The notes below the pieces were generated by a model. It had not been told where the DNA came from and searched no databases. It saw only the letters and a list, made by a program, of their open reading frames with translations. Shown here piece after piece: positions 5,001 to 64,000 of a stretch of 64,000 nt of DNA; position 1 is the first letter of the stretch; every line of letters begins with the position of its first letter. The translations under genes were made by a program, and so were the position numbers. The stretch comes from Amphiscolops sp. MND2022. Lineage: Eukaryota. The stretch is from assembly GCA_964187785.1 (NCBI GenBank), contig OZ076409.1:20710001-20774000 (forward strand), written 5' to 3'.

Positions 5001-5097
5001 AATTCATATCATGCGAAAATTCATATCATGCGACAATTCATATCATGCGACAATCATATCATGCGACAATTCATATCATGCGACAATTCATATCATA
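5001..5097. repeat. 17-bp tandem array (AATTCATATCATGCGAC) x ~6
   Basis: Units directly visible, just upstream of repeat copy 2; could be a subterminal array of a DNA transposon (inference). Confidence 0.9.
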
Positions 5098-5099
5098 TA

Positions 5100-14631: not shown

Positions 14632-14632
14632 T

Positions 14633-14650
14633 TGGAGACCTCGACGTGAT
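14633..14650 (+). promoter_or_regulatory. Primer binding site, tRNA-Trp-like
   Basis: TGGAGACCTCGACGTGAT 1 nt after the LTR; 16/18 match to the recalled tRNA-Trp PBS TGGTGACCCCGACGTGAT. Confidence 0.75.
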
Positions 14651-26475: not shown

Positions 26476-26479
26476 GAAA

Positions 26480-37300: not shown

Positions 37301-38554
37301 TCTTCCTGCTGCTGTTGCCCCCGCTTGAGTGGAAAGCAGTTGAAGCCACGTCAGTGCCAGGCTGTGCTCTCGTGGTGGCGAAGTTGATGAGGTCCTGCTT
37401 CATCTCTTCGTAGCCCTTTAGTGGTCCGAACTTTAGAACCGTGGCGATGCTCTCAAAAGTTGGAGGGAGGCCCTTCAACACCATTGCGCTGAACATCGCA
37501 TTGGAGTTATCTCGTCTGCTTCTTGAAGGTCCAGACGTGTTCCCTCAGCCCTGGTGAGGTAGTCGGTCGCTTTCTCCCCTTGTGCCATCTTCAATCCAGC
37601 CAGCTCAGTGAGCAACGTCTGAATGCAGTGTCTCGCGGTGCTGTGGGTTTTCCAGGCTTCAACCCCGTCTAGTTTGTGAAGGCGGATAATGTTGATTAAA
37701 GCCTTGCCCAAGCACTGAACAAGATCGCACCAGACCAAGAATCGCTGCTTCTTCCGCTCGTCCTCTGCTTTGACCCTGGCAGTTTCTTCTCCCCTCGTCT
37801 CGTCTTTTTTGAAGGCAGGCACAGTCAGCTTGTCCTCGAGGCACTTTCCCAGGTTGAGCATGTGCATCCTCGCCTCGAACTGCTCACTGAACGTCGCAAA
37901 ATCCTCGTCTTTGCCAGAAAAGGAGAGCTTCTCCAACCTCGATTGGGTGGCTGTCATCTCAGCTGCTGAATGCTTGGCTCCACGTCAACTGGTTGATCTG
38001 GGCTGGTTGGGCTGTGATCGTCAAGTTGGTATCGGTCGTCGTCGTTGTATGTCAGTTTGTTTCTTGGCCCATAACCTCTCAAAAAGTAATGCAGTGATTA
38101 TTAATTGAATTAATTGTTGGGGTGATACAATTGAAAATGCAAGCGATATATATCAGACCAGTGCCAGATAAGATGGGAGTCGCTAAGAACAGTTGTTTAT
38201 TTCGTCTCGGCAGGCAGTGCACTCCAGGATCCCTTGAAAGTGAAGTACTTCCTTGGCCGCTTCGCTCAGGGCGTGAAACTCTGCTTCTGTCGTTGATGTG
38301 GCTTCGCATGTCTGTTTCTTCGCGGACCACGAGATTGCGCCACTGCCGTAGCTGAAACAGTATCCACTCACACTTCTGCGGTCGTCCATATATATGTCCT
38401 AACGTTTACAGGTCACAGCAGGTGCCAAAAGAAACAATTCAGTTCACTGTGTGGCAGGTACCTGTCAATTCTGTTATACATTTTGTCCCCCATCCTTTCA
38501 TCGGCTTTCGATCAGCTTGTCAGCTCGTCGACTTCCAGTAATATAATCCCGACA
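34318..38554 (-). mobile_element. Ty1/Copia LTR retrotransposon, degenerate, 5-bp TSD AAAGA
   Basis: TSD 34313-34317 and 38555-38559; 5' LTR 38077-38554 starts TG; gag with two CCHC knuckles, protease LVDSG, integrase HTDVLGP/VSDGAQEY/PQENG, RT YKARFVARGFTQ/VWVDD, RNase H SWSAKKQ...TEAE. Confidence 0.92.
38063..38076 (-). promoter_or_regulatory. Copia PBS (half initiator-tRNA-Met type)
   Basis: Minus strand GGTTATGGGCCAAG directly after the LTR, matching Drosophila copia-type GGTTATGGGCCCAG. Confidence 0.85.
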
Positions 38555-39049
38555 AAAGAGTTGAACGGGACGGCTTACACGGTTTTTCCTGCACCAAGAG
38601 TTCTGGTCTCTTCTCACGTCATGCTAATGTCAATTCTCCCATAAAGCAGACGTTGGGATCTCTCGACTTGCCTTCAATGCTCGAACTGCGTGGACTGTAC
38701 CTAACCGTATGGAACCAGTTTGTAGAAAAACAGTTTGTAGAATCCAGTTTGTAGAAAAGTGAGGTCCAGTTTGTAAAATTTTTTCTACAAACTTGATTCT
38801 ACAAACTGGTTTTCTACAAACTGGTTCCATACCGTTCGGTACAGTCCACGCGGTTCGAGCATTGAAGGCAAGTCGAGAGATTCCGACGTCTGCTTTATGG
38901 GAGCATTGACAGTAGCATGACGTGAGAAGAAACCAGTACTATTGGTGCAAGAAAGACCCCTGTAAGCCGTCCCGTTCAACTATTTTGTCAGGATTATATT
39001 GCTGGAAGCCGACCAGCTGACCAGCTGATCGACAGCCGATGAAACGATG
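38491..39049. repeat. ~560-bp imperfect palindrome (inverted duplication)
   Basis: ~38780-39049 is the reverse complement of 38491-~38760. Confidence 0.9.
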
Positions 39050-43055: not shown

Positions 43056-43577
43056 GGAGTGTACGCCTTTAATCTAATTGCTTGGGTCTAATGGAATTAG
43101 ATCTAACTGTTAGGTCTAACTTTCAGATCTACTTTTATCTAAAATATTTAGGTCTAACCCGTTTATGATCTCATATTTGTTCTGAAAGCGAAAATATAAT
43201 GTGGGGCATATGCGATGTATGCACGCTCGCGCTCACCGCGTTCGTTTTGATCGAATTGCAGCGATCGAATGGAATGCGGTCGAATTTTATTGTCTTTGTT
43301 GTATGGCTCGGTCGCTTCGCTCCCTTCGCCAAGTAGCAACATTGAGGCATGGCCATATGGCACGTCGCTCCGCGTAGCTTCGCTCGTGCATTCAGGGCAC
43401 TAGGGGTATGTGAACATATCTGACTACGTTATAAAAATTTCGATCCGAGTTGTTTCGATCCCATTCAAAAATTTGGTATGTCGACCTGAGGACTAACTCT
43501 GATTTTCGATCCCGTTCCTTCGACCTATTTCCGCCCACCCCTCTTAGATCTATTTCATTAGACCTGATTCCACGTAG
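43056..43577. mobile_element. MITE with GGTCTAA/TAGATCT inverted arrays, 9-bp TSD (1 mismatch)
   Basis: CTTTCTTGC 43047-43055 vs CTTTTTTGC 43578-43586; partial reverse-complement shared core at ~43198-43240. Confidence 0.75.
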
Positions 43578-44112
43578 CTTTTTTGCACCAAGAGAGCTGG
43601 TCGCTTCTCACTTCATGCTACTCTCAAATTTCTCGTAAAGCAGACGTTGGGATCTCTCGACTTGCCTTCAATGCTCGAACCGCGTGGACTGTACCGAACT
43701 GATGGCAAACGCCAATAAGGTTTTAACATGATTCCTTGGGAAACGGGTAATCAGCTGGTGTGGGATGTCACGGTTGTGGATGCTCTTGCACTCAGTCGCC
43801 TGAATCAAGGCTCTTTATGCAACCCGGGAACCACCGCCACCGAGGCTGAAGCGCGTAAAATTGAGAACTATCGCGAATTAAGAGATAATGGATACATTTT
43901 TCAGCCAGTGGCCTTGGAAGTACAGGGTCCTTTAGGCGAGAGCAGTGAAATTTTCATCACGCGTCTCTGTAAAGTGCTCTGTCGTTCGCACGAAGATCAA
44001 CGAGCTGGCAGCTTTTTGAAGCAACGGGTTGCAATGGCTCTTCAGATCGGCAATGCGGCCTGTGTTCTAGGAACTGTGAACGACAGAGATGCGTTCGAAG
44101 AAATTTTTTTTT

Positions 44113-44286
44113 TGCACATGACGAAGTCAATGTGCATTGCAGTCCAGCTAAGGAAGTTTTTTTTTCACTATAGACAACTTCATAATGAGCGCCTTTTAGA
44201 AAAAAGCCAAAACCCCAGAGAGATTCGAACCTGCAGCCTCCCGATTGCACGGCATAAGTGTTGACCACTGTGCCATAGGGACGTTT
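44113..44286 (-). mobile_element. tRNA-derived repeat (second copy 57828-58005)
   Basis: Minus strand TGGCACAGTGG A box and GGTTCGAATC B box followed by T-run; near identity between the copies. Confidence 0.75.
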
Positions 44287-45138
44287 TTTACCTTTATATC
44301 AAAGCAGCTTTTAAAAAATTCCACCTGTTGACTGCATATTGGCTGGGTTGAATAGTTTGTTGGTTGTTTTTTTTGTTACTGGTATAGTGGCTGGTATGGG
44401 GTTCCCTACTTTCCACTGCTGAAACTTGTATGTGTTGATGTGGTGTTCTCTACCCATCAAGGTTACTTCAAACAAGTGTACGGTGTAGCTATGGGCAGCC
44501 CCTCAGGTCCCCTTCTCGCAAATGTGTTCATGTCAAAATTTGACAAGGATCTAGGCTTCTTCAGTCCCTTCTATTATAGATATGTGGACGACATACTGAG
44601 AACTATGTTGGTAGGAGGAGGAGAAAACCTGTTGAATTTTGCGAACACAATGCATCCAAATCTCAAGTTTACATTGGAAAGTGAGGATAATGAAGGTGCA
44701 CTATCATTTTTAGACATGCGTGTGGAGCATGTTGGGAACAAAATCGAAGCCTTATGGTACACCAAAAAAACGGACACTGGTGTTGTTCTCAACTACAACA
44801 GCGAAGCAACAAACATTTTCAAGTCTGGCATCGTATCAGGTTTCGTACATCGCATATTCAATACATGCTCTTCGTGGCCTAGATTTCACGATGGACTGAT
44901 GAAAGCACAGAAGATTTTACGTGACAATCAATATCCCACTGGTTTTATTGAAAAAATTACCAGTCACACCTTGGACAACATTTTGGCACCGGTGAAGAGT
45001 GGTCTTCCTGCGAAGCTGAATTGTCCGAAGGCTGATTTGAACATCGGTTTAAAGTTAATGTACAATGGGCCGTCATCAATTACCCTTGCCAAGAATCTGA
45101 AGAAGACCCTAGAACCATTGGCATCACTCAATGTCTTC

Positions 45139-45305
45139 TATAACAACCCAAGCTCGACATGATTGTGAGAAAATAGCCATTACAGGACTCGAACCTGCAT
45201 CTCAAGACAGATCTAGCTAGCAGTCAAGTGCCTTAACCCTTAGACCAAATGACTTATTTAATCTCACCAATCATTCGACTTATCACTAACAACGCTGTTG
45301 TTATA
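45139..45305. mobile_element. 167-bp solo-LTR-like insertion with 4-bp TSD CTTC and an internal tRNA-like cassette (minus strand)
   Basis: Terminal IR TATAACAAC/GTTGTTATA; removing it and the hAT restores the PLE frame NVFFTTTKL; minus-strand TGGTCTAAGGG and GGTTCGAGTCC boxes. Confidence 0.75.
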
Positions 45306-46812
45306 CTTCTTTACAGGGTTTCCAAGTACTTAGTTTAACGACGAATTGGTATTTGTATATTTGGTCTAGCAGTTAATTGTATTTGGAATTGGTCCGAAAA
45401 TAAAAATTGTATTTGTATTTGCTGTTTGGGCAATTACAAGATTTGAAAATTGTATTTGAAATTGGTATTTTCAATTGACAAAAATCGACATTTTTTCGAT
45501 TTTTTTTCAAAAATGCGACAAAAAAATGACATTGTAACGTTTTAATTTTTCAAAATCTGCACATTGAGTTTGAAATTGCGGGAGTGCGTGTAGTGAGAAA
45601 AAACAAGGAAACCAACAGCGACCATCTAATCTAAAAAAATTTTCATGATTTCTGAACGCGCGGTCGATCATATAACGGGGGCATAAACTGTATATGGATG
45701 GGCTGCCTGGTGAAAACAACATAGATGGTACGTACATTGAATTAAATGACAAAACAGGATTTTAAATAACAAACCTTAACAACTTCAAACCTCAACAACA
45801 AGAAACTGAACTAAACTCAAGAGTATGGCAATTAAGGGGAGAAGAATAGAAAGCTCAGTTGAATAGCAGCTTGTTCTTAGCAATAAATACGTTTCGCTCG
45901 TGTATCTGGGGGCTCATACGCCTTTGCAAATAGTTTTTTGATAGACGACCCAGTGAAAACAACCTTTCAGCGTCCACAGTTGACGGTTTGAAATTCGTGA
46001 GATAAGGCAGTATGTCAAAGTCAGATTCTTCGTTTGACTCGCTGTGGTTCAATTGGTTTTCAAGGTCTTTGAAAGTAGAAAGAGACATAACTTCAGATGG
46101 CGTATAGTCATGCCCTGAAAAAACTGTTGTGATTTGCTCTGGTTCAGGCAGACAGGTTTGTTTGACAAACTCATAGAATGGACCATTTCGGAATAAAATG
46201 CCCGTCGCTACTGGATTAGAAGAAAGATGTTTCATGAAAAGCTCATTTATTGGTGACTAAAGAGACTTCTCTGCTCTTGAATTCAAAAGCAAAATGAGTT
46301 TGTCAACGATAAAATGGTACTCCTCCTCAAGACAATTATTCAAAGAATCGAATGAAACCTCGGTAATCCCCAATCTGCGATAGAAATACTGCAAAGTTTC
46401 AGGGTTCCATGGTTATTAGCCGTAACAATAGTTTGACACTTTATACACTTCCGTCGTTGTGTTTTCCGTCCATTTCGGAACTCACACAAGAAAAACTTTT
46501 GTTTCAGTATGTTCCACTGGGTATTGTCAGCTACGCAAAGGTTTTCGGATTCCGGCTCCACCGATGCCTCAGGCTCAGACGACAACTCTACCACCGAATC
46601 AGACATCAACTGAAAAAACATAAAATCATGCTAACCAGAAAAACAGCATGAGAAAGTTTCTTTTAAAAAAGAAACTTCAAAAAATAGTAGTCTAAAAAAC
46701 AACACAACATTTTTATACAACAAATCTAAGCGTGTACCTAACCCAGCTGAAAATTCGAATTTTGATTTCTAAAATCGTAATTGGAATTGGGTTTGCTATT
46801 TGGAGGGGGTAC

Positions 46813-48631
46813 CTCAACACTGAGTACCCGCACGCTCCGACGTTTTTCGGCGAGGCATGTAAGGTCGCCAGAAGCACAAAAATCCTGGGATTGATTGTGG
46901 ACGACAAACTGAATTTCAACGAACACCTACAGCAGGTAGAAGGGAAAGTTGCTAAACAGCTGAACATATTTGAAAAGTTTTGCGGCTCTAATTGGGGTCT
47001 AAGGCAAGCAACGCTCATAAAGCTTTACAAAACTCTAGTGCTCCCCCGACTTCTGTACGCGGCCCCTGTGTGGGCCAGGAAACACGTTCAAGCACTGAGC
47101 CGTTTTCAATACACCGCGCTCAAACTTATCATAGGTACAAGTACGAAATTCGACCAGTTGGCAGCAGAAATACTGTGCGGTCTCCCGCCTATGCAATTAC
47201 AAATTGACATAATCACTATTAATTTTGGAATCAAGCTCTCTCAACAGCAGGACATATTCTGGAAACTGTACCGGAAATGTCAATTGCCGGAAATAAAAAG
47301 CGATAAAAACCTCATTAACAATTTTTATAAAGTCACAGGAGCAATAAATTGTTACACGGTGTCAACTTGCAATGAGTACCTGAGAAGTAGATGGAACAGA
47401 ATATTCAAGAACGCGCTCACGACTACCCCACTGGATTGGTCAATCACTCAAATTGAATTGGAAGGGATTGCCTATCCAAAAACGACAAGCAGACACCTAG
47501 AAAGAACTATCAACAAGCTCCTTTTGAATTGCAACGTGGAACTGGCAGAGTATGCGTACAAAATTTGGCGAGCGGAGACTCCGCTCTGCCCTTGTCGAGA
47601 AGAGGCAGAATCAGTCACGCACTACTTATTCTTCTGCCCCCTGTACGAGCAGTTTCGTGCGCCCGATTTTGTCGCAGGAAACATCTATTCACTTACCTGG
47701 ACCACGAACCTGAAAAATTTCATCATAGATTCTGGACGTTTCGAAAGAAGCACAGAAAGGAAGCGACACTTTCAAGAGAGTACTCGACTACTAAAGACTC
47801 ATAATTTTTGAGGCTATGACTAACAGACCTTCAACTTTTACTTTATTTACTCAGAACTGATACCAAGTGGGTGACACGAAACGGGTCGAAATAATCCGGT
47901 CGAATTGCAAGGGCGAAACTGTGATCGAACGAAATTGATCGAAGTAAAATGATCGAAGAAAATGGTCGAAAGTTTGCAAAAAACGGACCTATACCGAATA
48001 GAAAAATAGGAAAAGCGTCGAACAACTAGAAAGTGGTCAGAATTGCTCAAAAATGTCAAAACGTTCAGAAATGCGATTTTTTGCATAATGGACGAACTTT
48101 AACGCGGTTTTTTTTTAGTACAAAACGTGCCTCGGATATGTCCCCATTTCCTCTAGTGCCCCGCGGCCCCTTGGGGCTGCTTATATTCCCATCTTGCTAA
48201 GCGAGGTCGAACAGGAGCAAAGACATAGCGGGAACGGAGATCGCGAAGCGATCGTAGTGGGAGCTGGTCTTTGCGACGGTGAGGGCGAGCGTGCATACAT
48301 CGCATATGCCCCACATTATATAAACTAAAAGTCTCTGCCATTTGATGTGTTCACGACCGCGGTCACCCATAACCAAACCTGAAATTAGATTAAATAAGAT
48401 TGTTGGTTAATTTTTTCGACTAAATTCTATCTTGAAAAGCAGTTCGACCTTAATCGTTCGATCAAAAAATGCTACATATTCAATTTCGACCCAATTATTT
48501 TTCGACCAGTTTCGACCTCAGTTTTTTCGACCAAACTTTTTCGACCTGGTTATACGTCGCCATACCAAGTGCCTAAAACATAATTGTTAGATTAACCCGC
48601 AATTTAGGGGTTGTGTAGATTCTATATATAT
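46813..48631 (+). mobile_element. 5'-truncated LINE (RT thumb + CCHC C-terminus) with (TA)n tail and 9-bp TSD AGGGGGTAC
   Basis: KILGLIVDDKLNFNEH, YKTLVLPRLLYAAPVW, CPC...E..THYLFFC in ORF ending 47811; TSD 46804-46812 and 48632-48640. Confidence 0.88.
47870..48561. mobile_element. MULE-like MITE with GGTCGAA/TTCGACC inverted arrays and GC-rich core, 10-bp TSD ATACCAAGTG
   Basis: TSD 47860-47869 and 48562-48571; imperfect TIR GGTGAC.../...GTCGCC. Confidence 0.88.
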
Positions 48632-49209
48632 AGGGGGTACAAGTACTTGGAATTGGGTATTTGGTTTTCGACAAAAATAGTATTTGAAATTGTATTTGGG
48701 TCCGATTTTCTCCTAATTACTTGGTATTTGGGCAATTACTTGATTTGCTATTTGAAAACCCTGCTTCTTTACCACCACGAAATTGATGTCAAACTTGCCT
48801 AGCCTGAAAGCAGTTGTTCCTAAACCTATTCGGAGTCGTCTTGTATACGAAATAAGTTGTTCTGCTTGCTGTGGAACCTATGTTGGACAAACCATCCGAC
48901 ATTTAGACGTCCGAATACGCGAACACAATAACAAAAGCACGCCAGTGGGCCAACACTTCTCCAATTGCGGATTGGAATTGAGCTTGGAAGACGTGCGAAT
49001 ACTGACAACTGAAAAGCATCCCAAAACCCTATTGGCACTTGAAGCTGTACTCATTCGTAGAAAGAAGCCCATCCTCAACACGCGCGACGAATTTGGAAGC
49101 CACACGCTGAACTATGTTTTTTTAATGTGGCAGTAGTTCTGCCCTGTAATCATTTAGTGATTGTACAAAACCTGGTTTTGCAACTAAATGTTTTTATTTT
49201 AGATACAAT

Positions 49210-49253
49210 GTTAACTGATGATGAATGATGTTACATTCGAAAAGCTTTTTAAT
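49210..49253 (+). ncRNA. Minimal type I hammerhead ribozyme in the PLE 3' region
   Basis: GTTAA-CTGATGA-T-GAATG(atgtta)CATTC-GAA-AAGCTT-T-TTAAT: core motifs, 5-bp stem II, palindromic stem III. Confidence 0.8.
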
Positions 49254-49558
49254 TCAACACTTGTTTTTTAATTCCTCAATTCCCTACTTTCGTTGCAGAC
49301 CACGGGTGTGTGTCTTCTCCCCCCAACATGATGATACACATGGCACTTGATTGATGACGAAGATCCATGATATCTGATAGAGGAAAAAAAGTTTTTTATG
49401 GGAGGGGGGTTTAGCAAACAGGATCCAATCGTCCTGTTCAAGTAACTACCACTTGCGTAATGTTGAAATCTTTCAAGACCTATTAAATATATCGCTGTGT
49501 ATAAAAATAATAAGTGCTAAAATAATATCAGCGCCTTGAGATTGTTGTTCTCTTTCAG

Positions 49559-51004
49559 AGTATACAATGGAAAAATCACATCATTGTACGGTGGACAACT
49601 GTTCCCGGGTTTTCACGAAGAAAAGTAAATTGCGGCAACATTTAGCTTCGACTCATAAAATCTCTACTGATTACATCTGTAAAAAATGCGATGCAGTTTT
49701 TGACTCACAAACTAATTTAACTCGTCATAACAAAGTCCACGTTGGGTACAACTGTGAGAAGTGTTCGTGTTCTTTCTCTACGTGGTCAGAGCTGACAAAA
49801 CATTGCAAAAGCGAACATCGAGTGGTTGCAATCAAATGTGGTGGCTGTCGAAAAAAGGTCATGTCGAAGGAGGATCTGGTAAAGCACTACCCTGAGTGCC
49901 CAAAGCTTAGCGAGCTGACATGCAAGTTTTGTTCTCGGCAGTTCTCCAGGAAAGGACTCCGAAAAACTAATAAAGCTATAATTAACTTCCACCAATTGAC
50001 GTAAGGCAGAAAGTTTCCATCAAATAAGTTCTGCCATATCTGAAATTTCGAGGAACAACGTAAGTGTAGCTATTTTTGCATCTACCTGGTGATACCTTAT
50101 TTATATTTTTGCTCAGCTTCATTTGAGTTCACGTGTCCTTGGGACACATGTGCATAAAAATTCTATAGAAGAGGGTTCTATGTAGGAAAAATTATGAAAT
50201 CAAACAAGGCGGGAACATCACAAGTCGGCGCCCGCCCAAAATTCAAAACAACAGCCCCAAAAAATGAAAAGAGAATTTGGGTTTCTAACTTTTTTTAATT
50301 CTTTCTCTTTTTATTCTAACTTTCAATTACGATAGCAGGCTGTTTTTGAAACTGATTCCTACTCGTCATGTCAGTAGTTGTAGAAAATGGGAGGTTGGCG
50401 TAATAATTTCTTTTTGATACGACTTTTTCCTCTCGCTTGATCAATTTCGTGATACGCTGAATAAAAATAGTTTTTCGGAAGCCTCGTCTCCAGGCCAATG
50501 AATGTGCGAATACATATACGAACAGTTCATGAGAAACAACGCGAATTCGTTTGTTACATCTGCAACAAAGCATTCCTTCATGCACACAATCACACAAGTC
50601 ACTTGGCAAATTGTATTTCTGCTCAAGAACGAGGTGAACCATTGAACAAAGCACCCACCTCTGATGGTATTACTTGTTCAGGGTGTGGGAAATATCTTTG
50701 TTACAAACGTAGTTGGTGGCGACATAAAAAGCGATGTGTCATGTTGAAGGACGCATCTAATAAAACTGAAGACTTTGGGGCTGCTTTGGGCTTTGACGAA
50801 TCTTTATTACATGGAGCGTCTTCTGAAGCCGCTGAAACTGTTCCCGGATGTCAAGCTCTAACTACTGACGCGTTGATGAGCGAACACGAGTCAGTATCGT
50901 CAGAAATGGAAACAGACTCAGACAGTGATGAACATTTATTTTCAATTGAATTAAATTATTTTAAAAAATTGTTATACCTGAATAGTTCAAATTCTTGTGC
51001 ATAA
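49559..51004 (+). CDS. TFIIIA/p43-like C2H2 zinc-finger protein (fingers ~4-9 plus an extra atypical finger); exons ~49559-49949 and 50494-~51004; upstream exons not located
   Basis: Acceptor TTTCAG ending 49558; HVGYNC..C...STWSELTKH resembles TFIIIA finger 6; joined frame CSRQFSR|PMNVRIHIRTVHEKQREFVC resembles fingers 8-9; acidic tail. Confidence 0.75.
49951..50486. mobile_element. MITE with 8-bp TSD TCTCCAGG inside a zinc-finger coding segment
   Basis: TIR AAAGGACTCCGAAAAACTA / TAGTTTTTCGGAAGCCTCG; TSD 49943-49950 and 50487-50494. Confidence 0.9.
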
Positions 51005-51110
51005 AATAGGACCCAATCCGAAGTAATAGTGCTTTTCTTCAAAGAGTTTATTTTGAATTGATTTTGCAAACTTGGGGCATGAAAAATTCCTCCGAAAACT
51101 AAATTTTCAG

Positions 51111-51517
51111 CCACAAAACGACCGTGTCACATACTCGACAGGAATATTAAATTTCATTTTGTATTCCGATCATAAATGTACATCACTGAATGCAGATGCC
51201 TCTGTACTGTCGAATACATTACCTCAACGACAACCAAGAAATGCTCCTGATTCCCAAACTGTCATCATTGACCAGGGTACCAATGAAAGTGAATCCCCGC
51301 TGGTGTCTGAAACGAAATCTGGTTTACTCAGTGAAAAACAAAAAGATGACATTGGCAGCAGTAAACTCGTCAACTCAGAACCGAATCTTGAGAAGGACAC
51401 GTCGTTTGAAATCAGCCTTCCTCCTGCTTTGAAGTTTCCATCAAAAGGTGTCCATAAATCTCGAAAGTTCACCATTGGACCGAAGAAAAAAATGAAAATT
51501 GAACATTCACTCATTAC
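51111..51517 (+). CDS. Possible downstream exon (Ser-rich, NLS-like PKKKMK)
   Basis: Open frame after TTTTCAG acceptor at 51110; no recognised domain and link to the zinc-finger gene unproven. Confidence 0.3.
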
Positions 51518-52068
51518 TAGGGGGAACCAAATGCTATAAATGCTATTAATGCTATAAATGCTATTTTCTCTTACATTTTGAACTTAATTGCTATTTTGTC
51601 TGTCGCCTGAAAACCAATATTATTTCACACGATAAATAAACATACACTTACTTACTACTTATTTTGTTGGACACCTTGAATGCATAAAGCAAATAAATAT
51701 AACACGCCTACTCATCTTTGTTGTATTTTAAGATCAACTATGCCTAAAATACCGCTTACTAAGCATGAGAAATCTTCAATTTATGCTCAAAAATATCCAT
51801 CGGAATTCCGTGTTTTACCAAACGGAGAATTAATTTGTAAATTATGCGACAAGCCCGTTAACTCGGACAAAAAGTTTGCTATCGACAACCACCGTTAATT
51901 GTAATTAACAATATGCATCCAAGTAATTGTTTTTTCAATAGTTTTTGGGCGAGTAAAATACAAAAAAATCAATTTTAAGTGCTATTTTTAGTGCTATTTT
52001 AAAGTTTTTTGAGTGCTATTTAATAGCGCTATAAAAACGTTTGTTAGTGCTATTGTTGGTCCCCCCTA
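51518..52068 (+). mobile_element. Internally deleted hAT-like element, 8-bp TSD CTCATTAC
   Basis: TIR TAGGGGGAACC / GGTCCCCCCTA; TGCTAT subterminal repeats; N-terminal zinc-finger remnant LICKLCDKPV...KKFAIDNH. Confidence 0.88.
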
Positions 52069-52348
52069 CTCATTACAACGACAACAATTAACACGATCAA
52101 CGTTTAGTCGAGTAATTCTTAATTCTTGATATCTTAATGATAAAGTGGCTGAGGATTTGTTTTGTTTTGGTGACTTGATAGATTCGATATATAAAGTTTT
52201 TTAAAAAAAACATTGTGATGTAACTTTTTCCACAGCAGAAGGTGTCAGTTGCTGAACAATTCTCAATATGTGTAGATGCAAAATAGGCAATGCTGTAGGT
52301 GTGAAAATCTGAAGTTTAGATCCTACTGATCTGCATTTCCATCTTTCT

Positions 52349-52544
52349 CAGGGGTGGTTTTAGGATTTTCTCAACGGGTGGGCGGATTTTCCAAATGTGG
52401 GGCACACAGTAACGAGAGCACCAGTTGAATACTTGAAAGTAGGAAAACTCGGTTCATTTTACCGGCTGTGTCATCAATTCATTTTATGCATCTCCAAAGG
52501 GGCAGGCTGCCGCCTTCCCAGCACCCCCCTTAAAACCGCCCCTG
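52349..52544. mobile_element. hAT-type MITE, 8-bp TSD ATCTTTCT
   Basis: TIR CAGGGGTGGTTTTAGG / CCTTAAAACCGCCCCTG; TSD 52341-52348 and 52545-52552. Confidence 0.9.
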
Positions 52545-55500
52545 ATCTTTCTTGCCTGAAATGTGAAACCCTATGTTGGAAAGAGGCTCTTCCAGAGCAC
52601 GAATAGTGGTAGTGAGGATTACAAGAAGCGATTGGCTAATAGCTACGAAATACAAGCAGCCAAATTTTGAAAACATTTTTTATAGTTTAATAAAACTACA
52701 CGCAAGCAGCTAGACAGTTTCCTCTTTGGTTTTCACCGATCAAAAATAGTGATTATATGCTCTGGGTCTTTTTACCCCAGTTTTTCGTAACCATTTTTCA
52801 AACCAAAATATATTTAACCGACCTAACCAAGTTTTGGATCGAAAACAATATTACCCAATTAATCGAAAGCTTCTTTGATGATCAGGTGTTAAAAACCACT
52901 GATGAGTGAGTCAAAATTCGAAAAGGTGAGGAAACTTGAGAAGGCTTTAGGCTTTTCAACTTTATACTTCTGTAATAATATAAAATGAGTTCTATTCGGT
53001 GGTGTTCCTTCGTACAGTTCTTGTATAAAATTTGCAATTTACAGTTGCTGAGTGGTCCAGAATGGTTAAATTGGACGGACATCAATAGTGCAAGTCGCAA
53101 CTCAATATCAGCTCTTTCTTTGGTTCTCATACGGAATAGTGATCAACCCCAGAAATTACCAATCAGGTCCTGAGATATGGACCTGATGATTTCAAGAGTG
53201 ATATATTGTCCCATTTTAGTCATAAATTATATGATCATGCTTAGGAGTGGCCAAAAAAGTCGACATAGTTCGCAAAATACTTTTTTCTCGAAATAGTGTG
53301 CCTTGGAAACAATTGTTCGTATCGAAGACCATTCCTGTGTGTTCTAATTTATTTATTATACGGTTTATTATACACCTTAGTCAGGATTTTAGCCGTTCTG
53401 ACACAGCGTCAACAAGAGCAGGATGGGCGTGAACTTCGGGACATCAATTGGACCCTTCATGGGAATTTTAATCTTAAGTAAGACCCTTTGGACTTGCTAG
53501 TGTGACCACATTCGAAGCTGCGTATGTGTAGCTGTTTTATATCTTAAAGTGTACCTGTTAAAATGTATCTGCTCAAATTCCAGATATAAGCGGAATTTTT
53601 CGCAACAACCACAAGATTATGTTGCACATGAATTCTTTCCAATACCAGCAACTTTGTAATTTGGTGTTTACAGAATGCGGGATATCCGAGGTTAGTTTAA
53701 TCTGTTTGATTTAACTACAATAACAGTTTTCGAATGCTTGCTTGTTCCCAAACAACGGGATCTTTTGTAGCTTCAACTGACATTTGTTATGAGTTAGCGT
53801 CGTCGGTGCATTGTACCGACTTATATCAGTGAAAGGCGACGTCAAATATTTGTTCACAATGTTCGTTGCAGACATTGACCAATATTCGAAAGCCAAATTT
53901 GGTCGTATCGACCTTAGTCGCAAGATAAAATCCGTCAGCTCTCGTTAATTGTACTTGGATAGCTACATGTATACATGGTACATTGTGACTAAATGCATTG
54001 TATCTTCATTTTGGCATGAAGTTATTTTTGTGTCAGACCTTGTGATATACAACATTTGCTCGAACTGCATCTCCGTGCATAGTTTAGAATACAGCAACAG
54101 CATTTACTGGAGGTGCAACTCTCAGCATATCTTAGTCTACAACATTGCTACAACTGCATCTTGGTGCATTGTTTGGTGGTCCATCTACATAAAAGTTTAA
54201 ACTACATCAAGCGTCTCTTTCGAGTAAGTTTTTTCTTGGAATTTCAATTGATATATATTTCTGAGGTGCAGTATTAACGCTAATTTTCAAAGGCTGCACA
54301 CATTTAAGGTTATGAAATCTATTCGAACAACATTTTAAAGGATTTTTTTATATTAAAGGATCGGCCTTAAAATTTAAAGGATTCGAAAAAACACATTTCA
54401 AATACTTTAAGGGGAACGTCATACAAGACAAGACAAATTTCTCAAGAACTGTTCATACGATTTTCTATAATATTTAGCACAGTCATCATACACTCAAAGG
54501 TGCTCCTGCGTGCGCAAAGGCATCAAAATCGTATGATTGGGATGTGAGAAACATAGCCAAAAATAGCCCAAAAAATGGCCATTTTTCGATTTTCTCAAAA
54601 ACTCCATACGATTCGAACGAAATTTTCTACAGTCATTCTACACCATATTAGATATCTTGCTTGGATTAATACGTGTCGCACCAAAAAACATCAGCAAAAA
54701 ATCAAATCTATTGGTTCGACCCATTATGGTAAGCACCTGCACCGAAAAATCCAGAATAATTTTCAGCGAATTATAAGATTCAGCGAATAATTTTCTCACC
54801 CTGCTATTCGTATTTATAATTGCTGTCAAATTTCTTTTTTATTTTGTTTAAAGGAAAAAGGATCCTTTAAAGGAAAATCCTTTTAAAGGATCGATGTTTA
54901 AAGCAAGGATTTTTTAAAGGATCCTTTATAGGATCCTTTAAAGGAAAATAAAAAGGGACATCACTGCGAACATCAAATGGCGATGTATCAAGATTAGGAA
55001 AAGCCCAAAGCAACCTTTCAGATGTCAATTGCAGACCCAAGTTGTCGTTTTCAGCCGAATCGACATTCCTTCAGGCAGCTATAAGTAGTCTAACCAGAAT
55101 TTTTTTGGACAATTTTTTATCTCCTTGGTGATCTGAGAACAGAAAAATCGTTATTTTTGACTGATTTTCAGTATCGACACTCCGAAGCGGGTCCCTATAA
55201 TTTATAAATCTGTCTTTCTCTTAATGCCGAAAAGTTCTTCATAGTTGGAAAATCTTTTTTTCTTCTTTAGAATGTTACCAGCTTGTTTTATTACTCTAAT
55301 CTAGGGGTGTACCGGGCATCAAGTCCGGTCCGCTATCCGGTCGGACTTCAGAAAAATGTCCAGTCCGGTATCCGGTCAGTCTTCTGACAGAATTCGGCCG
55401 GAAAAATATCTTCGCAAATGATCGCATATCTCAGATGAAAATTGTTTGAAACGGTCAAAATTCAATTATTTTGTTGAAAATTTCCGGCATTTACTTTGTT

Positions 55501-56657
55501 TTTCATTATACTTCTTGTCCAATTCCAAAAGCAGTCTGTCGTCACTTATAATTGAGGATCATGGCCAGTATCCGGCTTTGATGAGTCCTGTCCGGCAGAA
55601 CGGAAATTTTCCTGTCTATTGCATCTCTACTATAGCCGATATACATGCTGTCAGCACCGTCTATAGTGAAGTTTCTCAACGTACAGTAGTGTTTGAAAAG
55701 AATGAGAGATTGACTACATAAAACCGCCAACTTTGACATCCAATATCTCAATCAATTACAAGTTAACAATTTTGTTTGAAAGTTTTGTTTCAAAATTGAA
55801 TCTAGATTACAGATGTCATTGTTTGGAAAATCTTTGACAATTAATTAGAAAATTAAAGAGGACCCTTTATTTGTTTTTATAATTATTTTAAATTTAAACC
55901 TATACAATTATATATTTTCCATTCAATGAAAATTGATTTTGAGCGCAATTTTCGTATGAGTTCAAAAAGTATCGTTGGTTTAGGAAGTGCGAAACCTTTT
56001 GATTGAATGTATCTTTCGGCTTCATATCAGCCAATAATATTGCAGATTTTAAGTAAATGAGCGTTATCATTCATTGCACGTTATCAAACAGGGCACTAAA
56101 AGCTCCATTCTTTTTTAAACACTACGCATGTTGTAGTTATCTGGTTCTTTCTTTCGCAATGAAAAACCATCCAGCGTAACGTTCAATTCAGGCACCAACT
56201 GGTCTCTTGTGCATCATCGCTGTATTCGAATTTATTCTGGTGCTTACCACGTGTGGCAGTTTTATGCGGTAAGAATGTAAAAGATGCGTTTCGTAATGTT
56301 GTAAAAATGTCATTTTATTGCTTTTCACGTGGAGGAACACGTTTCCAGGCATCAAATTAAGACGTCAATAATCGGCGTTATCTGAAAACAACTCACTGTA
56401 ACATGAGAAAGTTCATTCAACATTGAACGTCTCATCTGGCCTTTTGTCTACGATGATGCAATATTTTGGACGCGAAATTTGATTGGTTGCCGAAAATGCG
56501 GAAAACATGCAAGAATGTGTAAGCGCAAAAAACTGCCGTGTCTGCCTGCTGTTGACGCACTATACGCGATGCTGACTGTATACTAATGCAATCGAGTGGA
56601 GGAAAAAAAGTTCTGTGAATTGGTATTGGCTTTGGTTCTGAATCTCACCTTTTAGAC

Positions 56658-59600
56658 ATGTCTTACCGAGTGGTTGTGGCCGGAGGTGGAACTGCGGGAC
56701 TCACCATGGCTATCAGGATGGCACGGGCCATAGGCAAACAGAACGTGGCCCTCATCGAAACCAAGGACACACATTATTACCAGGGATCATCTGCTTATTC
56801 AACACCAAATACCTACTCAATTTCCTACAATTTTTTTATATTTTGCAAGAACAATCCTATCGCGTGCGAATACCGAGCAAAAACATTCATTTCAAGAAAT
56901 ATTGCTGATACACGTGCGTACATTGTTTTCACGACCGAGTATTAGATAATGCTCGTCATTCGTTTCCTCCAACGATTTGCCTAAGATAGTTGGACAGTTT
57001 TAAAAAAGCCCAAAAGCGTTTCTCTTATTCTAATCTCTTCCGTTTTGGTTTCAATCAAAAGTTTTTCACCTTCAGATTGGTTCGAATGGAGACAATTTTC
57101 AAAAGTTTGTTTCCTGGCTGATTTTGGAAGTAGCTAGAATTGTCAATTTTCGACTACTTCGATTATCATTTTTATCAAATTTTTGCATTCAATTCTCTTC
57201 GATTAGACCTTACTCGATAATTGATTTCAAGTAAGTATAACCAAGGGCCCCTCGCGGGCTACCTTGGTGCTAGAGTTTTTACTGCTGGGATCAGTTTTAT
57301 ACTTTTGAATTCCCAAGAAACTAGCGCCCAATTAAATGGGATTTTTAATTTTTTGTTTTGTTCAAAGATTTCTTGAGTCATCAATCTATTAGTTATCGGA
57401 CGTATGCTCAACCATTGTATTCCTAGCTTTACTTTTTTGAATAATTTAATGATTTTCGGAGGTCAATACAATTAAGGTACAAGCAAATTTTTGTCAGGAA
57501 TTGAGTTTGGAACAAGATCAAATTTTTCCTAATGAAATTAGTATGATAATACACAATCAATTACTTTTCTAAAACTGAGGAGGTTGATTATCCCTGGTTA
57601 CCTCTAGCCTATGTGGACTTTAGTGGGCGGGGGTTTGAAGAACTTTGACAAGTGTCACCGACCAATGAGCAGTTTGGTACCCAAAGGACTGCATTGGGAG
57701 AAGCAGAAAGTCAGCCAATTTCAGCCTGCTGAAAACTGCGTTACGCTAACCAATGGAGCTAAGGTTAAATTAATATTCACTCGTTTATGCATTCTTTACT
57801 GAATTCAATTGGTGTCGTCTTTAATTATTGCACATGACGAAGTCAATGTGCATTGCAGTCCAGCTAAGAAAGTTTTTTTTTTCCACAATAGCCAACTTCA
57901 TAATAAGCGCCTTTTAGAGAAAAGCCAAAACCCCAGAGAGATTCGAACCTGCAGCCTCCCGATTGCGCGGCATAAGTGTTAACCACTGTGCCATAAGGAC
58001 GTTATTGAATGAAGTTGAACTGTTGAATATATACGCATGCGATTAAAATAATATATATACGCATATTAAAATAATCGATGTCTTCGTCATGTGTTGCGAA
58101 GCACCGCTTCGCCTCTGTGTTACACTTGCGATAAGCAAGTGTTATGGGAAAGTGCGGGTGCTTTTTTTTCCGCGCGACAACTCGTTTCAGCCCGCAAGTC
58201 GCATAGTTCAGGCGTTCGTGGTCTAGTTGTAAGATGCTTGCTTTTCAACCCAGAGGGCTCGTGTTCGAACCCGTGCATATGCGCTAATTTTTTTACAAGT
58301 ATTCCGAAGCAGAAGATTCTCACTTTTTCGGCACTATGAGATCCCCTTTTCGGCTTTGAGACTTTTTTTCGAAATTTTTCAAATATCCCCAGAGGTTCCT
58401 CCCTTCAATTTTTCTTGGTTTATTTGCAACAGAACGAATGTTAGAAAATCCCAAAGGGTCCCGTTTTTCAGATTTTTCGGCACTATGAGACTGTTAAAAA
58501 TTCTCATTTTTTTTCTAAAACTTTTCAAAGTCTCCAAAAGGTCCCCCTTCATTTTTTTTTGAAATTTCGCAAAACGATGGATATTTAAAAATCTCAAAGA
58601 GCCCCCTTTTACAGTTTTCGGCTTTGTGAGATTTTTAAAAATAATAATTTTTGTCTTAAAATTAGGTTTTCTCAGGCCCAGCACTCTATATCCGATTTTT
58701 TTGTAAAGACCGGTTTTTTTTCTAATTTGTTTTCATCGAACCCCCCCCTCCCGCAATTTTTACCAGAAACGAAACGTTTTGCGAGCATTAAGGACTGCTC
58801 AAGGTTTTCGGCACTATGCGACTTACCGGAGACCAAAAATTTCGAAAAAAATCCTCAATTTTCTGATTTTTGAAAGGTTTTCGTTTGAGAATGATGGGTT
58901 TTTGCTGTTTCCAGTTGGGGTAGAATGGTTTTCGAAAATTTATGCGTATCCCTTTGGGTATTTTTTGGCGCTGTAAAATTGATGAAATTGTAACAATGTC
59001 CGTTTACCCTTGCCTCTCCGTATGATGTTGCTTATTTGGTTTTCTTCAAAAGTTCGCAACTTTCTTCGCAAGTGTTTGCGAAGCACGGCTTCGCCTCTGT
59101 GTATAAATCTGTAAAAGCAGATCTATCAAGTGTTGTATACTTGTTAAACATCGGTTTTCGAGAATTTAGGTTCGTTTGTGACCAGTGTTTGGTTGATTTG
59201 TTCATTGCATCGCCCATTGTGTTATCATTTTAGCTGCATTATGAATATCTGATAGTTGCTCTGGGCTTGGAACTTCAGTACTCGAAGGTGCCCGGCGTGT
59301 TGGAAGGAATGGAAGAAAGCGCCAATGTTTGCAGTAATTATCACTCACTGTATTGTCAGAAAACTTTCAAGGCCATTGAGAACCTGAAAAGTGGACTCGC
59401 TCTTTTCACTCACCCTAACACCCCTATCAAGTGTGCTGGTGCATCTCAGAAGATTTTGTACCTCGCTGAGGAAAGGTTACGTGAGAGAGGGGAGCGACAG
59501 AACGTGGACTTCGCATTCGCGACTCCTGGGCCCGCTATCTTTGGAGTAGAATTGTATGCAAAGGCTCTTCAGCAGATTGTAAAAGAAAGAAATATCAAGA

Positions 59601-60437
59601 CATATTTCAAACACAATCTTGTGAAGCTCGACCACAAGAGAAATCTAGCTGTTTTCAACTCCACGCAAGATGCCGTAAGCTATCTATTTCCCTAATTTCG
59701 TGGGTTCCTTTTCACTGATGTATTGACTGTGTACTGAGTTTGCTAGTTGCACGCAATTTACTCAAGTTCTTACCAGAGTCAGCATTTAGGACAGTTAGCA
59801 TTTACTAGAGTTATCATTTACCAAAGTTTTAGTTTTAAAGATTTATCAGCCTTTCATTTCCGGAAAAAGTTGTCCCTATGGTGTTGTCCAAAGTTTCATT
59901 TTTTTGCAGGAAAATCCTCGAGAAGTTGAAATTGAATACAGCATGATCCACGTCACGCCTCCCATGGCGGCACCTGTTGCTATTCGAGAGAATGTTGACC
60001 TGGCTGCTAAGGATACGGGATACTTGGACATTGACCTATTGACTCTTCAGCACAAAAAGTACCCCAACGTTTTTGGCATTGGCGATAACATCAACATCGG
60101 GGCCACCAAAACAGCTGCAGCAGTAGCCAGTCAGACTGGTGTTGTGGAAGCCAATCTGAGAAGTTTGATGAAAAACCGCAGCATGAAAAGACAATATGAT
60201 GGCTATACAAGTTGTCCCTTGGTTACAGGCAAAGGAAAAGGCCTCTTGGCCGAGTTTGATAAGAATGGGGTGCCTCTGGAAACATTTCCCCTGATAAGAC
60301 AAGATAAAGAAACCTGGTACTGGTATCACCTTAAAGCCACCATGATGCCTCTTCTATACTGGCACGGATTCATAAAGGGACCTTGGAGAGGTCCTGGATT
60401 TTATCGCAAACTCCTACGACTTGGTTTTTCTTCATAG
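56658..60437 (+). CDS. SQOR: Sulfide:quinone oxidoreductase; exons 56658-56783, 57608-57763, 59234-59674, 59910-60437 (~416 aa)
   Basis: FAD motif VVVAGGGTAG, HYYQ|PMWTLVGGG, catalytic PIKCAGASQK and YDGYTSCPLVTG, FGIGD; all introns phase 0; introns 2-3 GT-AG, intron 1 GG-AG. Confidence 0.93.
56781..57596. mobile_element. Old TIR element coextensive with SQOR intron 1
   Basis: CAGGGATCATC (56781) vs GATTATCCCTG (ends 57596), 10/11 inverted match; putative TSD only 4/8. Confidence 0.55.
57828..59102. mobile_element. Composite repeat in SQOR intron 2: TIR-flanked tRNA-like unit (57831-58094) plus Helitron-like unit with terminal hairpins
   Basis: IR CACATGACGAAG/CTTCGTCATGTG; direct repeat TTGCGAAGCAC.GCTTCGCCTCTGTGT at 58095 and ~59077; tRNA-like 58210-58283; TTTTCGGCACTATGAGA subrepeats shared with ~63560-63620. 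Confidence 0.6.
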
Positions 60438-61034
60438 AACCGATTTTTTAATTGCTTATTTTTTGGGACTTTTTCTGATTTTGTTTGTCCGAATAATTGA
60501 AACATGGTGCTTCTCTTTTTGTTGAATTCAAAATCTATACATCATTTGTTTTAAATACATAGAAAGGGTTAGTGCAGTGGTTTTCTAGGATACATATGAG
60601 TGTTAAGAATGAGAGTAAAAACTCTTTGCAATGAGCTCATTCGTTTGATGAATATTTTTTCCATCACTTGGATCTATCGCTAGTATTAAGATTTGATTTC
60701 CAGTGTCGGGGTTGCTAATGCTAATTCGATTGAAATCACACAGGGAAGACATTTTACATTTTCACCAGAGACTGGAAAGATGCTACTCTACATAGTTCGT
60801 GCAGGAGCCTTTACTGTTAAAAATCACTCTGGGCTCAGTTTTTCATGATGAGAAAATCTAGAATGTGGTCTTATGCAGGTACTGTTCACTGAGAGTGGCC
60901 TCTATAGAGCCGAATTAATTAGAATCAAATTTGCAACCGATATTTTTAGACGACAATTATGCACGCTTCCGTTATACAGGATACAAAATGGTAATTTCAA
61001 TATAACTCAAACAAAAATTGGTTGTATGACTCGA

Positions 61035-61964
61035 AGTTAACATGTTTTCGGAAACTTTCTCACCAGCGAGCTCCAACTGCTTACTCACATACTCCGCTCG
61101 AGTCAGGTAGTCAACCATGCTCTCCGTGGGCTCCAAGCGCAGGGTTGTGAACTTCTCCAATAGGTTCATCAACCTCGGTGTTTCGGTGCTGTTGAAGTGG
61201 TCCCGCAGTAGTTGCCATGCCTTCGGACCATCACCCTTGCAGTCGTTCGTCAGCATCAGGATACTGCGGCTGTCATGACACTGTACCAAGTACGCCCAAA
61301 TTTCGTACTTCTTGTCATTCGTGCCAGCATCTGTTCCATTCAGCACGTTCAGTAGCTTCTTCGTGAAACAGAACCCCTCGAATCGCTCCTGCCACACAGC
61401 GAAGTCTTCTTCCTTGCCAGAGAACTGGAGATACTGCAAAGGTCGATCCATCCCTCACAAACTCCAACAAAAGCCCGAAACAGGCAGAAAGAAGTAACTG
61501 AAACAAAAATGAGGGCAGCAAAACAGGGATTCCCACGAAGATAAGCTACAAAGTTAGCGAAAGCGAAACGGCGGGTAACGGACGGCATAAATAGCAAAAA
61601 TTGTGGATATCCGAGACGCAAAAAGGAAAAATGGAGAGCGAAAAATAAGATCAGACGAGCATAGTCAAAGTGAGCAGAAAAAGTTTTTTTAAGGAAAAAG
61701 GCAAACTCACCAAATTGCTGGGCCCATAACCTATTAGGGCCTGAGCTCCTTCTGGTCGTAGCTGGGTTGTCGGAAGATTGGTGAAGAGTGGTTATTGTCA
61801 ATACTTTATTTTGTGTTGTGAGTTGATAAAGTGATTCAGTCAAGTGAAGATAAAATAACAGGTACATGTTTACAAACAACAATAATATACTAAATTAGTT
61901 CAGTCTGGCATAGTCTGAGATGGTTGACCTTTAATGGTCCTATGACCTTCATCGATCTCTAACA
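61035..61964 (-). mobile_element. Truncated Copia: 5' LTR (61732-61964), PBS (61718-61731), gag N-terminus
   Basis: LTR TGTTAG...CTAATA; PBS GGTTATGGGCCCAG; gag FSGKEEDFAVWQERF...DGPKAW...ESMVDYLTRAE. Confidence 0.88.
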
Positions 61965-62954
61965 CTTTTTGATCCTACACAATTCGACTCTGCACAGCAA
62001 TCCTGTCTCTCAATCTATTTTTTCGTCAGTACTGTTGAAAAACCAAATTTTGAATATTTTTCAATTTCTGATCATTATTTCCACTTCCATTGTCTCACTT
62101 CACAGTGGTTTATACATGTAATGTTTTTTTGTAAAAATTGCGGAATGTAAACCAGACAAAAGTCGGAAACGTTTTGAGAAATCCGTAAAATTATTAGGCG
62201 TTCGAAACTTCATAACTAAACAGGTTCCATTCTTTTACCACAATACTGTAGAGAAGAGATCGCAGAAATTCAAGGCATGTAATAATCGTGACACTTGTGT
62301 GAAAAACTGGATTCTCAGAAATCTGTGACATTTGCGTGTAATCGACAATCGAAAATGATTTTGAAGGCTTTTTGTCGAAATTGTTTAACCGTTTGCCCAA
62401 TGACAACTTCATTTTCACCAGTGTGTACGCATATTTTTGCCCAATTAAATTCTTTGATTTCGAGAAGTAAATGCCAATAAACTCTCTCCAAAATGTTTCA
62501 TTAAAGCAGGTAAATGTAGATGCTGGAAAAATTGTAATAAAATTGCTGTTACTTGAAAATGTATGTACAAAAAAATAAGGTTTTTGTCCATGAAAACCCG
62601 TGATTTTCAAGGTTTTCGGTGAATTTCAGCGTGAAATTGGACTTTTTTCGTCATGAAATGCTCGGTGATATTGATGAAAATTCTCCATGAATTTCTTACA
62701 TCCATGAAGTAGAGATAAACCAGTGCGTTGTGAATGAATTGATATTCATGATGATTCAATAGACTGCAGTGCTCCTAAAATGCTTTGTTTGTTGCATCAA
62801 TTAGTTTTTACTGGTTTTAGAACAAATCCAACTCAAGAGATTCTCAAGTACCGTATCTATTCAAAAAAGGGTCTCTTTGACTTTTTGCATCAAATCCCTT
62901 TACGTTTAGGGTGTTGGCACAAACTGCGATCTATGGAATAATATGAAACGCACT

Positions 62955-63797
62955 TCTGTAACTAAGATCTAAAGAACTATTATCTAAATGTCATTTTTCG
63001 TAACTAGGATGTAGAGAATGCCTGCGCTCCCGAATCGAAACGAAGGTCTAAATTTTAGACGTTATTCCCGTTTTTAGATGTTATTCCCGATTTGGAAATG
63101 ATTTAAAGTTTAAAACGTGCCTCAGATATGTCCCCATTTCCTCTAGTGTCCCGCGACCCCTTGGGGCCGCTTATATTCCCATCTTGCTCAGCGAGGTCGA
63201 GCAGGAGCAAATACCTAGCGGGAACGGAGATCGCGAAACAATCGTAGTGGGAGCTGGTCTTTGCGACGGTGAGGTCGAGCGTGCATACACGTATATGACC
63301 CCACATTATTCCTTAGACGTAATTCCTGTCCTTTTTAGACCTTAGTTACGGTGCATGATTTTTTAGTCGGCACTTTTCTTTAGAAAAGAGTCGACTATAG
63401 TCATGGCTTTTCGTCAGTGTTTTTTTAAGACCACCTGAACTGACCAAAATAGTTTTACAAAAGTTCTACAAAATATTATTGCACCATTTGGCCTAGCGAA
63501 CTGAACCAAAAAGGTTTTTCCTGTTTTCCCGCGTAACATACCATACCGAGCGAGACCAAAGGGTCCCCCCTTTCAGTTTTTTTTCGGCATTGTGAGACTT
63601 TTTTCCAAAAAATTTTTTTCATAAAAGGGTCCCCAACTCACCAATACTTTGACATATTGAAGTCCTTTTGCTATTTTTGAGCCTTAGATATGGCGCCGAC
63701 TTGGGCCGTTCCCGGCTTGTTAGATCTTAGTTCTTCTTTAGATCTCAGTTACGAAATTCATTTAGATCTTAATCCTTAGACCTTAGTTATGGTCCCC
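62955..63797. mobile_element. MITE with TAACTAAG/CTTAGTTA inverted arrays and shared GC-rich core, with a nested repeat (~63370-63720)
   Basis: Core at 63112-63308; inverted arrays on both sides; ends approximate, no TSD found. Confidence 0.6.
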
Positions 63798-64000
63798 ATT
63801 TAGGGTCACCTTTATCAGGCGAGATGCCAGTCATAGCTCTTGAAAGGATCGAAATTGACGACACTTGTTCATACACTGTCAATTCTAATAGTTGAGTTGG
63901 ACGATGAGCTGTTAATTGTAATAATTGGTGCCAGTGATGGACAAAAACTTGTTTTTAAGCTCGAGATAATGTTGAACTTTCTGCCAGAACACATATTGCG

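Follow-up and report, generated by a model that had tools for sequence, protein, structure and literature searches.

A transposable element inside a coding exon of a zinc-finger gene of the acoel Amphiscolops may be removed exactly as an intron that starts with GA and ends with AG. The explanation that we favor, with a probability of roughly 0.55, is precise splicing of a GA-AG intron in a lineage whose donor position +2 is relaxed. A hAT-like miniature inverted-repeat element (MITE) lies within a coding exon and is flanked by two copies of TCTCCAGG, its target-site duplication (TSD). According to the favored explanation, the spliceosome would cut exactly, using CAG/GA of the left TSD as donor and CAG of the right TSD as acceptor (the slash marks the cut), because in this acoel host +2 probably need not be T or C. 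The element would have begun with C or T, the intron would have been born GC-AG or GT-AG with the donor CAG/GYAAGG, and this donor would have drifted to GA later while keeping its function. The paired inverted ends may bring the two splice sites together and hide competing AGs. All coordinates (Table 1) refer to the window, i.e., the whole stretch of 64,000 nucleotides that was analyzed.

Table 1. Features of the zinc-finger gene, its inserted elements, and the neighboring SQOR gene (positions in the window).
Feature	Position	Strand	Details
Exon 1, four fingers and the first half of the next, resembling TFIIIA fingers 4-8	49559..49949	+	PF22110, 38.9 bits
Left TSD TCTCCAGG	49943..49950	+	gives exon-end CAG and intron +1 G
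Proposed GA-AG intron of 544 nt, removed exactly (predicted)	49950..50493	+	frame restoration
Element 1, non-coding hAT-like MITE, 536 bp	49951..50486	.	TIR 15/19 (49951-49969 / 50468-50486)
Competing canonical donor GAC/GTAAGG inside element 1	50001..50006	+	in open frame
Second internal donor AAC/GTAAGT	50060..50065	+	past in-frame TAA 50002-50004, non-productive
Right TSD TCTCCAGG	50487..50494	+	gives acceptor CTCCAG/G
Exon 2, rest of split finger, next finger, Cys/His cluster, acidic linker	50494..50924	+	P0150 alignment
Element 2, 266-bp MITE	50923..51188	.	inverted repeat 16/17 starting CAGTG; flanks 5/8 alike, both end CAGA
Exon 3, C-terminal motif common to P0150	51196..51539	+	P0150 alignment
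Element 3, 551-bp hAT-like	51518..52068	.	TAGGGG ends 12/13; TSD CTCATTAC 8/8
SQOR, four coding exons	56658..60437	+	56658-56783, 57608-57763, 59234-59674, 59910-60437
SQOR intron 1, apparently GG-AG (CAG/GGATCA...CTCTAG)	56784..57607	+	inverted repeat 12/13

The element and the exon that it splits

The first-pass annotation of this DNA had described a perfect 8-bp TSD containing CAG/G around a MITE, and this description is accurate. The two flanking copies of TCTCCAGG are identical in 8/8 positions, and the terminal inverted repeats (TIRs) of the element between them (element 1) differ only at positions 1, 2, 6, and 7; a repeat search of the ends recovered a 17-nt arm at 88%. When the whole window was screened for exact 8-mers 80-3000 nt apart with at least 15/19 inverted ends, element 1 was the sole such pair among 8288 exact pairs, and 20 shuffled windows yielded none. 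The region is predicted to fold into a closed hairpin with its ends paired (z -3.3), a stability reached by 0 of 100 shuffles. The termini read AAAGG and CGAGG, each one base off the YA start of hAT-type elements, no ORF of at least 60 aa lies wholly inside, and no second copy was found in the 64-kb window. At least 2 of the 38 terminal-repeat bases have changed while the TSD is unchanged, and the terminal-repeat changes suggest a divergence of about 5%. Within the element, the 34 bp at 50199-50232 show 85% similarity to the end of a repeat at 63692-63725 on the opposite strand; element 1 may contain nested DNA or DNA that it has captured.

An uninterrupted version of the exon is found in P0150, a 381-aa single ORF on another ENA contig that was recovered from 1.84 billion representatives. 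This protein is colinear with three segments of the window and reads FVRPMNV, unbroken, across the insertion site. Judged from this homologue, element 1 is thus an insertion into a previously continuous coding exon, and its exact removal returns the shared state. P0150 is 45% identical over all matched stretches, compared with 28-38% for generic poly-finger matches, with 72/126 identical residues before the site and 65/80 directly after it, 84/142 in exon 2, and 37/106 in exon 3, where the C-terminal motif is kept. Exons 2 and 3 are open, both halves of the split finger are intact, and 11 of the 12 residues of the downstream half are as in P0150. Among the 2198 candidates of a query with P0150, the sole match besides P0150 itself was one distant protein, leaving one uninterrupted homologue known; the JGI metagenomes held no relative of P0150 among 66 pattern matches or of P0274 among 137, and the ESM Atlas gave generic C2H2 clusters only, at low recognition.

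By definition, TFIIIA has nine zinc fingers, including the DNA-binding fingers 1-3. The TFIIIA-specific finger 6 (PF22110, cutoff 27) is recognized both in exon 1 and in P0150 (39.7 bits), and exon 1 aligns in one stretch to Xenopus TFIIIA residues 106-188, i.e., fingers 4-6 (E 2e-13), as P0150 likewise aligns to these fingers. The interrupted unit is presumably TFIIIA finger 8, with the numbering beyond finger 6 assumed on our part. While the finger 4-6 array is common to TFIIIA (Xenopus 1tf6, yeast 8ffz; PF22110), exon 1, and P0150, the protein encoded in the window differs from TFIIIA by an extra Cys/His cluster, a different conserved C-terminal motif, and the apparent lack of fingers 1-3, and generic poly-finger proteins outscored TFIIIA in a PDB search. 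No further C2H2 pattern occurs in the 49.5 kb of window upstream, though fingers could lie in exons outside the window or in finely split ones; P0150 has no finger in the 33 residues that precede its own first one, and a Met stands there at the matching place. Of the TFIIIA-like character first ascribed to the split finger, the match to TFIIIA fingers 4-9 and the passed PF22110 cutoff stand, but fingers 1-3 were found neither in the window nor in the P0150 ORF. Consequently, the gene need not be an essential TFIIIA, and an argument from an essential TFIIIA is not established; by its fingers, which are like 4-9, the gene probably encodes a TFIIIA-related protein and not TFIIIA proper.

The acceptor of exon 1, CTCTTTCAG, ends at 49558, followed by an ATG at 49567. 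In the segment 49549-49569, this acceptor is strong and lies 8 nt ahead of the ATG, and P0150 has a corresponding Ser-Glu-x-x-Met; about 170 nt further upstream is the end of a Penelope-like repeat. The acceptor could be a spliced-leader trans-splice site, a form of splicing that is described for 30% of the genes of Symsagittifera roscoffensis (PMC9911081).

Proposed splice sites at the ends of element 1 and their competitors

Removal of 49950-50493 (GAAAGG...CTCCAG) joins the flanks in a single open frame that reads FSR/PMNVRIH across the junction, with no scar. The geometry noticed at first pass, with FSR-PMNVRIH rebuilt without a footprint between two open frames, is therefore real, and the splicing itself is predicted from DNA. 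The GA donor (CAG/GAAAGG) matches 7 of 9 consensus positions. The annotation had also deduced an ancestral C at +2, which the right TIR does imply, but the terminal base of hAT elements is C or T (PMC3260210) and the donor may thus have been born GT, not GC. Other hAT-like elements in the window start with CAGGG or TAGGG, and YAGGG-type ends are present on three with an 8-bp TSD. The ancestral donor may have been CAG/GTAAGG, which is near-perfect, and, whether born GC or GT, its +2 base likely changed to A after the insertion.

The A at 49951 might instead be an assembly error or a rare allele, in which case the true intron would be an ordinary GT-AG or GC-AG intron made by the transposon. This base lies within a G/A run, and C or T would be expected here from the opposite end of the element and from the usual start of hAT elements. 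However, an identical read-through protein for which the A is required is found on two contigs (which may share reads), and the nearby SQOR gene has a second non-GY donor, so that we give a base error hardly any weight. CAG stands at positions 5-7 of the TSD, as it does in 37 of the 2354 8-mers taken from coding sequence here (1.6%, with YAGG anywhere in 30/2354), a figure open to ascertainment because the finding was picked for its CAG/G.

The exact GA-AG intron first proposed is supported by this geometry and by the uninterrupted homologue, but the proposal had missed the competing signals. Two AGs, at 50470 and 50481, stand before the proposed acceptor AG at 50493, and element 1 contains a canonical donor at 50001. 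Splicing from GT 50001 to the TSD AG at 50493 would exonize 51 nt, and the predicted in-frame product would survive with 17 additional residues and a broken finger. Such an intron has GT-AG borders, the first 17 element codons are open, and the 17 residues are identical on both contigs. However, this donor matches 6/9 consensus positions where the GA donor matches 7/9, the added residues would interrupt the protein where it is most conserved, next to the half-finger that is nearly unchanged in P0150, an open in-frame path of this length is estimated to arise by chance about once in ten, and the GT dinucleotide is predicted to be paired in 4/4 folds (probability of being unpaired at most 0.1). 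We therefore consider use of GT 50001 distinctly unlikely. The second internal donor at 50060 is stronger than GT 50001, and both of these GTs as well as AG 50470 fall mostly within stems in the fold predictions. The core stem of element 1 has a probability of 0.95-0.98 in an 850-nt context but of 0.03-0.13 in a 1370-nt context, and since the terminal stem depends on context in this way, masking of competing sites is a candidate explanation only. We rejected the other in-frame GT or GC donors upstream of the TSD, as all remove or change finger residues and are weak, except CAT/GCAAGT at 49922, with which 20 residues would be lost.

Pairing of inverted ends could also set off spliceosome-independent SOS splicing, whose substrate is an exonic DNA transposon with inverted ends that pair in RNA and whose junctions are heterogeneous and AKAP17A-dependent (PMC12779559). 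Only some products of this process would be in frame. SOS splicing is described as cutting at several sites, leaving indels, and rescuing only poorly conserved regions (PMC12779559), whereas element 1 interrupts a conserved finger, its inverted repeat is short and has mismatches (15/19), and its boundaries look spliceosomal (CAG/G-A on one side and a pyrimidine-rich CAG/G on the other). We regard this route as very improbable.

Two further insertions and the case for a working gene

Element 2 could be removed in frame from GT 50925 to AG 51195 at the cost of one added codon, and several other GT-AG pairs would serve as well. The donor GT comes from the element's own CAGTG end and the acceptor AG from the right flank, a decayed TSD, and element 2 is thus predicted to be a canonical intron made by a transposon. 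Element 3 lies directly after the last conserved residues and replaces only a non-conserved tail of about nine codons; its TSD, CTCATTAC, contains no splice signal. Spliceable insertions in the body of the gene and an unspliceable one at its dispensable end would be the mark of selection on a working gene. Inside element 3, a 52-aa ORF at 51740-51898 has a Cys/His pattern and no Pfam match, and we take it to resemble a transposase N-terminal finger.

In the simplest alternative, the insertion killed or truncated this copy, with transcripts that run into the stop TAA at 50002-50004 and give a 145-aa four-finger fragment or decay, and CAG/G would be chance or the remnant of a GY donor that mutation has since destroyed. 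GA donors make up a mere 0.006% of human introns (PMC5714493), the region is dense in transposons with three insertions in this ORF, and without fingers 1-3 the gene need not be an essential TFIIIA. Moreover, the perfect TSD permits a young insertion, in which case open flanks say little about whether the gene is alive: in simulations, a dead frame stayed without stops and frameshifts in 42% of cases at 1% divergence, 19% at 2%, and 1.3% at 5%. Against a dead copy speak the 1.6% chance of CAG at TSD positions 5-7, the tolerable places of the other two insertions, the need for a GG donor in SQOR nearby, and the presence of the insertion on two contigs that differ from each other but not in their exon residues.

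Behind this last point is the read-through ORF of 145 aa, with 17 codons from the element (a Lys codon contains the +2 A), which is found on two database contigs. On a second contig, of 21 kb, exon 2 is identical over 140 residues in an ORF that starts two residues later, and the 26 read-through codons of element 2 show two differences. The contrast of two differences against none gives a Fisher p of 0.024, or about 0.16 if both changes, which lie in one T/A run, count as one event. We infer that the 21-kb contig is the bearer of the second P0123 copy. A longer protein (225-2000 aa) from an empty allele was not present among eight candidates. Taken together, we consider a dead copy unlikely, and the indirect evidence favors a gene that is alive and a host in which non-GT donors are tolerated.

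The surroundings are rich in other insertions and repeats. Exact 8-bp flanks combined with inverted ends occur five times in the window including element 3, compared with once in ten shuffles; the others (45314-48763, 52349-52544, 43214-48301, and 4969-9815) have 11-13/13 inverted ends, and two start with CAGGG. The first of these splits a Penelope-like element (RT 44356-45159, GIY-YIG 48756-49133), which also contains a tRNA-like Rfam match at 45174-45254 on the minus strand (43.6 bits), probably a SINE head; Rfam found nothing else in 45000-64000. Further upstream are a 1.4-kb LTR-like pair (1-6495, 96.6%), an open 1208-aa Pao/BEL polyprotein frame (14610-18233), a tandem 2.6-kb duplication (25014-30257, 95.5%), and a near-perfect foldback of about 560 bp (38491-39049, 88%) with retroelement pieces around an array of CTACAAACTG repeats.

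The neighboring SQOR gene and known transposon-made introns

About 6 kb from the zinc-finger gene, SQOR is open in 4/4 exons and shares 57-63% of its residues with the Symsagittifera protein; in an exon search with 297 matches, S. roscoffensis was best at 59%, followed by molluscs at 54-55%. Exon 1 ends with HYYQ and exon 2 starts with PMW, while H[YF]YQP is contiguous in 5/5 aligned homologues, so that intron 1 appears to have a GG donor. Its acceptor cannot shift upstream because an in-frame TAG directly precedes exon 2, and other phase-matching donors were rejected since they would lose 12-13 conserved residues or, like TCT/GCTTAT, match 2/9 of the consensus. A strong CAA/GTAAGT is present at 57231 inside the intron. 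The shorter S. roscoffensis SQOR isoform X2 (P0002/P0122) lacks the N-terminus through the HYYQP region, which X1 has. In an exact look-up, five SQOR ORF pieces and one retroelement ORF were absent from the protein collection, in which 2/8 queries were present.

The SQOR intron also bears an inverted repeat (56779-56791 / 57586-57598), the left copy of which overlaps the exon-end CAG, though it lacks a clean TSD (4/8, or 3/3 if read differently). This repeat starts with CAGGGAT, and the first seven bases of the maize Ac TIR match these ends (PMC3260210). Altogether, TIRs are found in 3/5 inferred internal introns of the two host genes, or in 2/4 without the focal intron, with a TIR score reached in 18, 3, and 2 of 2000 shuffles for these three and in 160 and 1992 for the other two. 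The three TIR-bounded introns are unrelated to one another. Non-GY donors are seen in 2/5 inferred introns of the two genes, and both of them (CAG/GAA in the zinc-finger gene, CAG/GGA in SQOR) have an exon-end AG, +1 G, and +3 A.

Introners derived from DNA transposons with TIRs are known, e.g., Micromonas IE1 (PMC11282704, PMC9860276). They share with element 1 a short TIR element in a coding exon, a TSD at the junctions with the acceptor AG taken from it, a donor formed wholly or partly by the TSD together with the element end, and removal that is exact or adds a few codons. The zinc-finger insertion would work in the same way, with predicted splicing that takes the acceptor from the TSD and the donor from the TSD plus the element end: the exon is uninterrupted in a relative (P0150, one homologue), and splice sites made of TSD and element restore the frame, here with a non-canonical donor. 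It differs from described introners by its 8-bp hAT-type TSD, its GA donor (and GG in SQOR), its acoel host, and the involvement of three unrelated elements in place of a multi-copy family.

In animals, GA and GG donors with RNA support are reported genome-wide for the copepod Eurytemora affinis, where they make up about 10-12% of sampled introns (PMC5714493), and RNA-supported GA-AG introns are likewise reported genome-wide for Oikopleura dioica (PMC7072748). The introns described here share with them a non-GY donor, an exon-end AG, the +3 A, and a normal AG acceptor (PMC5714493, PMC7072748). However, the donors of Eurytemora and Oikopleura are, in the accessible text of these reports, not tied to a visible TSD or TIR, whereas both introns described here bear inverted ends and are predicted from DNA. 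The MITE-derived introns of Fritillaria borealis are similar in that an animal spliceosome has adapted to odd boundaries of elements with TIR and TSD, but AG-AC and AG-AT dominate there (PMC11282704), while the introns described here retain the +1 G and the final AG and deviate at +2 alone. Maize Ac/Ds elements of the hAT group, including Ds1, which is spliced from exons, resemble the elements described here in their 8-bp TSD and short TIRs with a C/T-AGG start (PMC3260210). This likeness concerns end structure. Ds1 splicing is usually imprecise.

Transposon-made introns and GA or GG donors are already known from a copepod, Oikopleura, and protists, and an acoel case may be new. The literature searched, which is mostly open and includes PMC9911081 and PMC10565955, reports no GA or GG donors or introners for acoels, and five acoel names gave 0 matches in 12 of the 14 supplement files of PMC12130899. 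Tentatively, and at somewhat less than even odds, we propose that the acoel lineage independently relaxed donor position +2, with GT, GC, GA, and GG all usable after an exon-end AG and with many unrelated hAT MITEs being turned into introns throughout the genome. It would then be the third animal lineage with GA and GG donors and the first in Xenacoelomorpha. hAT ends of the (C/T)AGG type together with 8-bp duplications would supply AG/G-N-A donors and CAG acceptors for free.

If the zinc-finger copy is nothing but a dead gene, there is nothing unusual in the finding. Otherwise it bears on the origin of new animal introns and on whether relaxation comes before or after transposon invasion, which are open questions with few animal examples. 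Within 6 kb of each other, the window holds one donor that seemingly drifted from GY to GA and one that was seemingly born GG from an element end, both with transposon ends that are still readable. In such a genome, gene models restricted to GT and GC donors would cut genes short or overlook them, and this matters for reports that acoels have lost genes.
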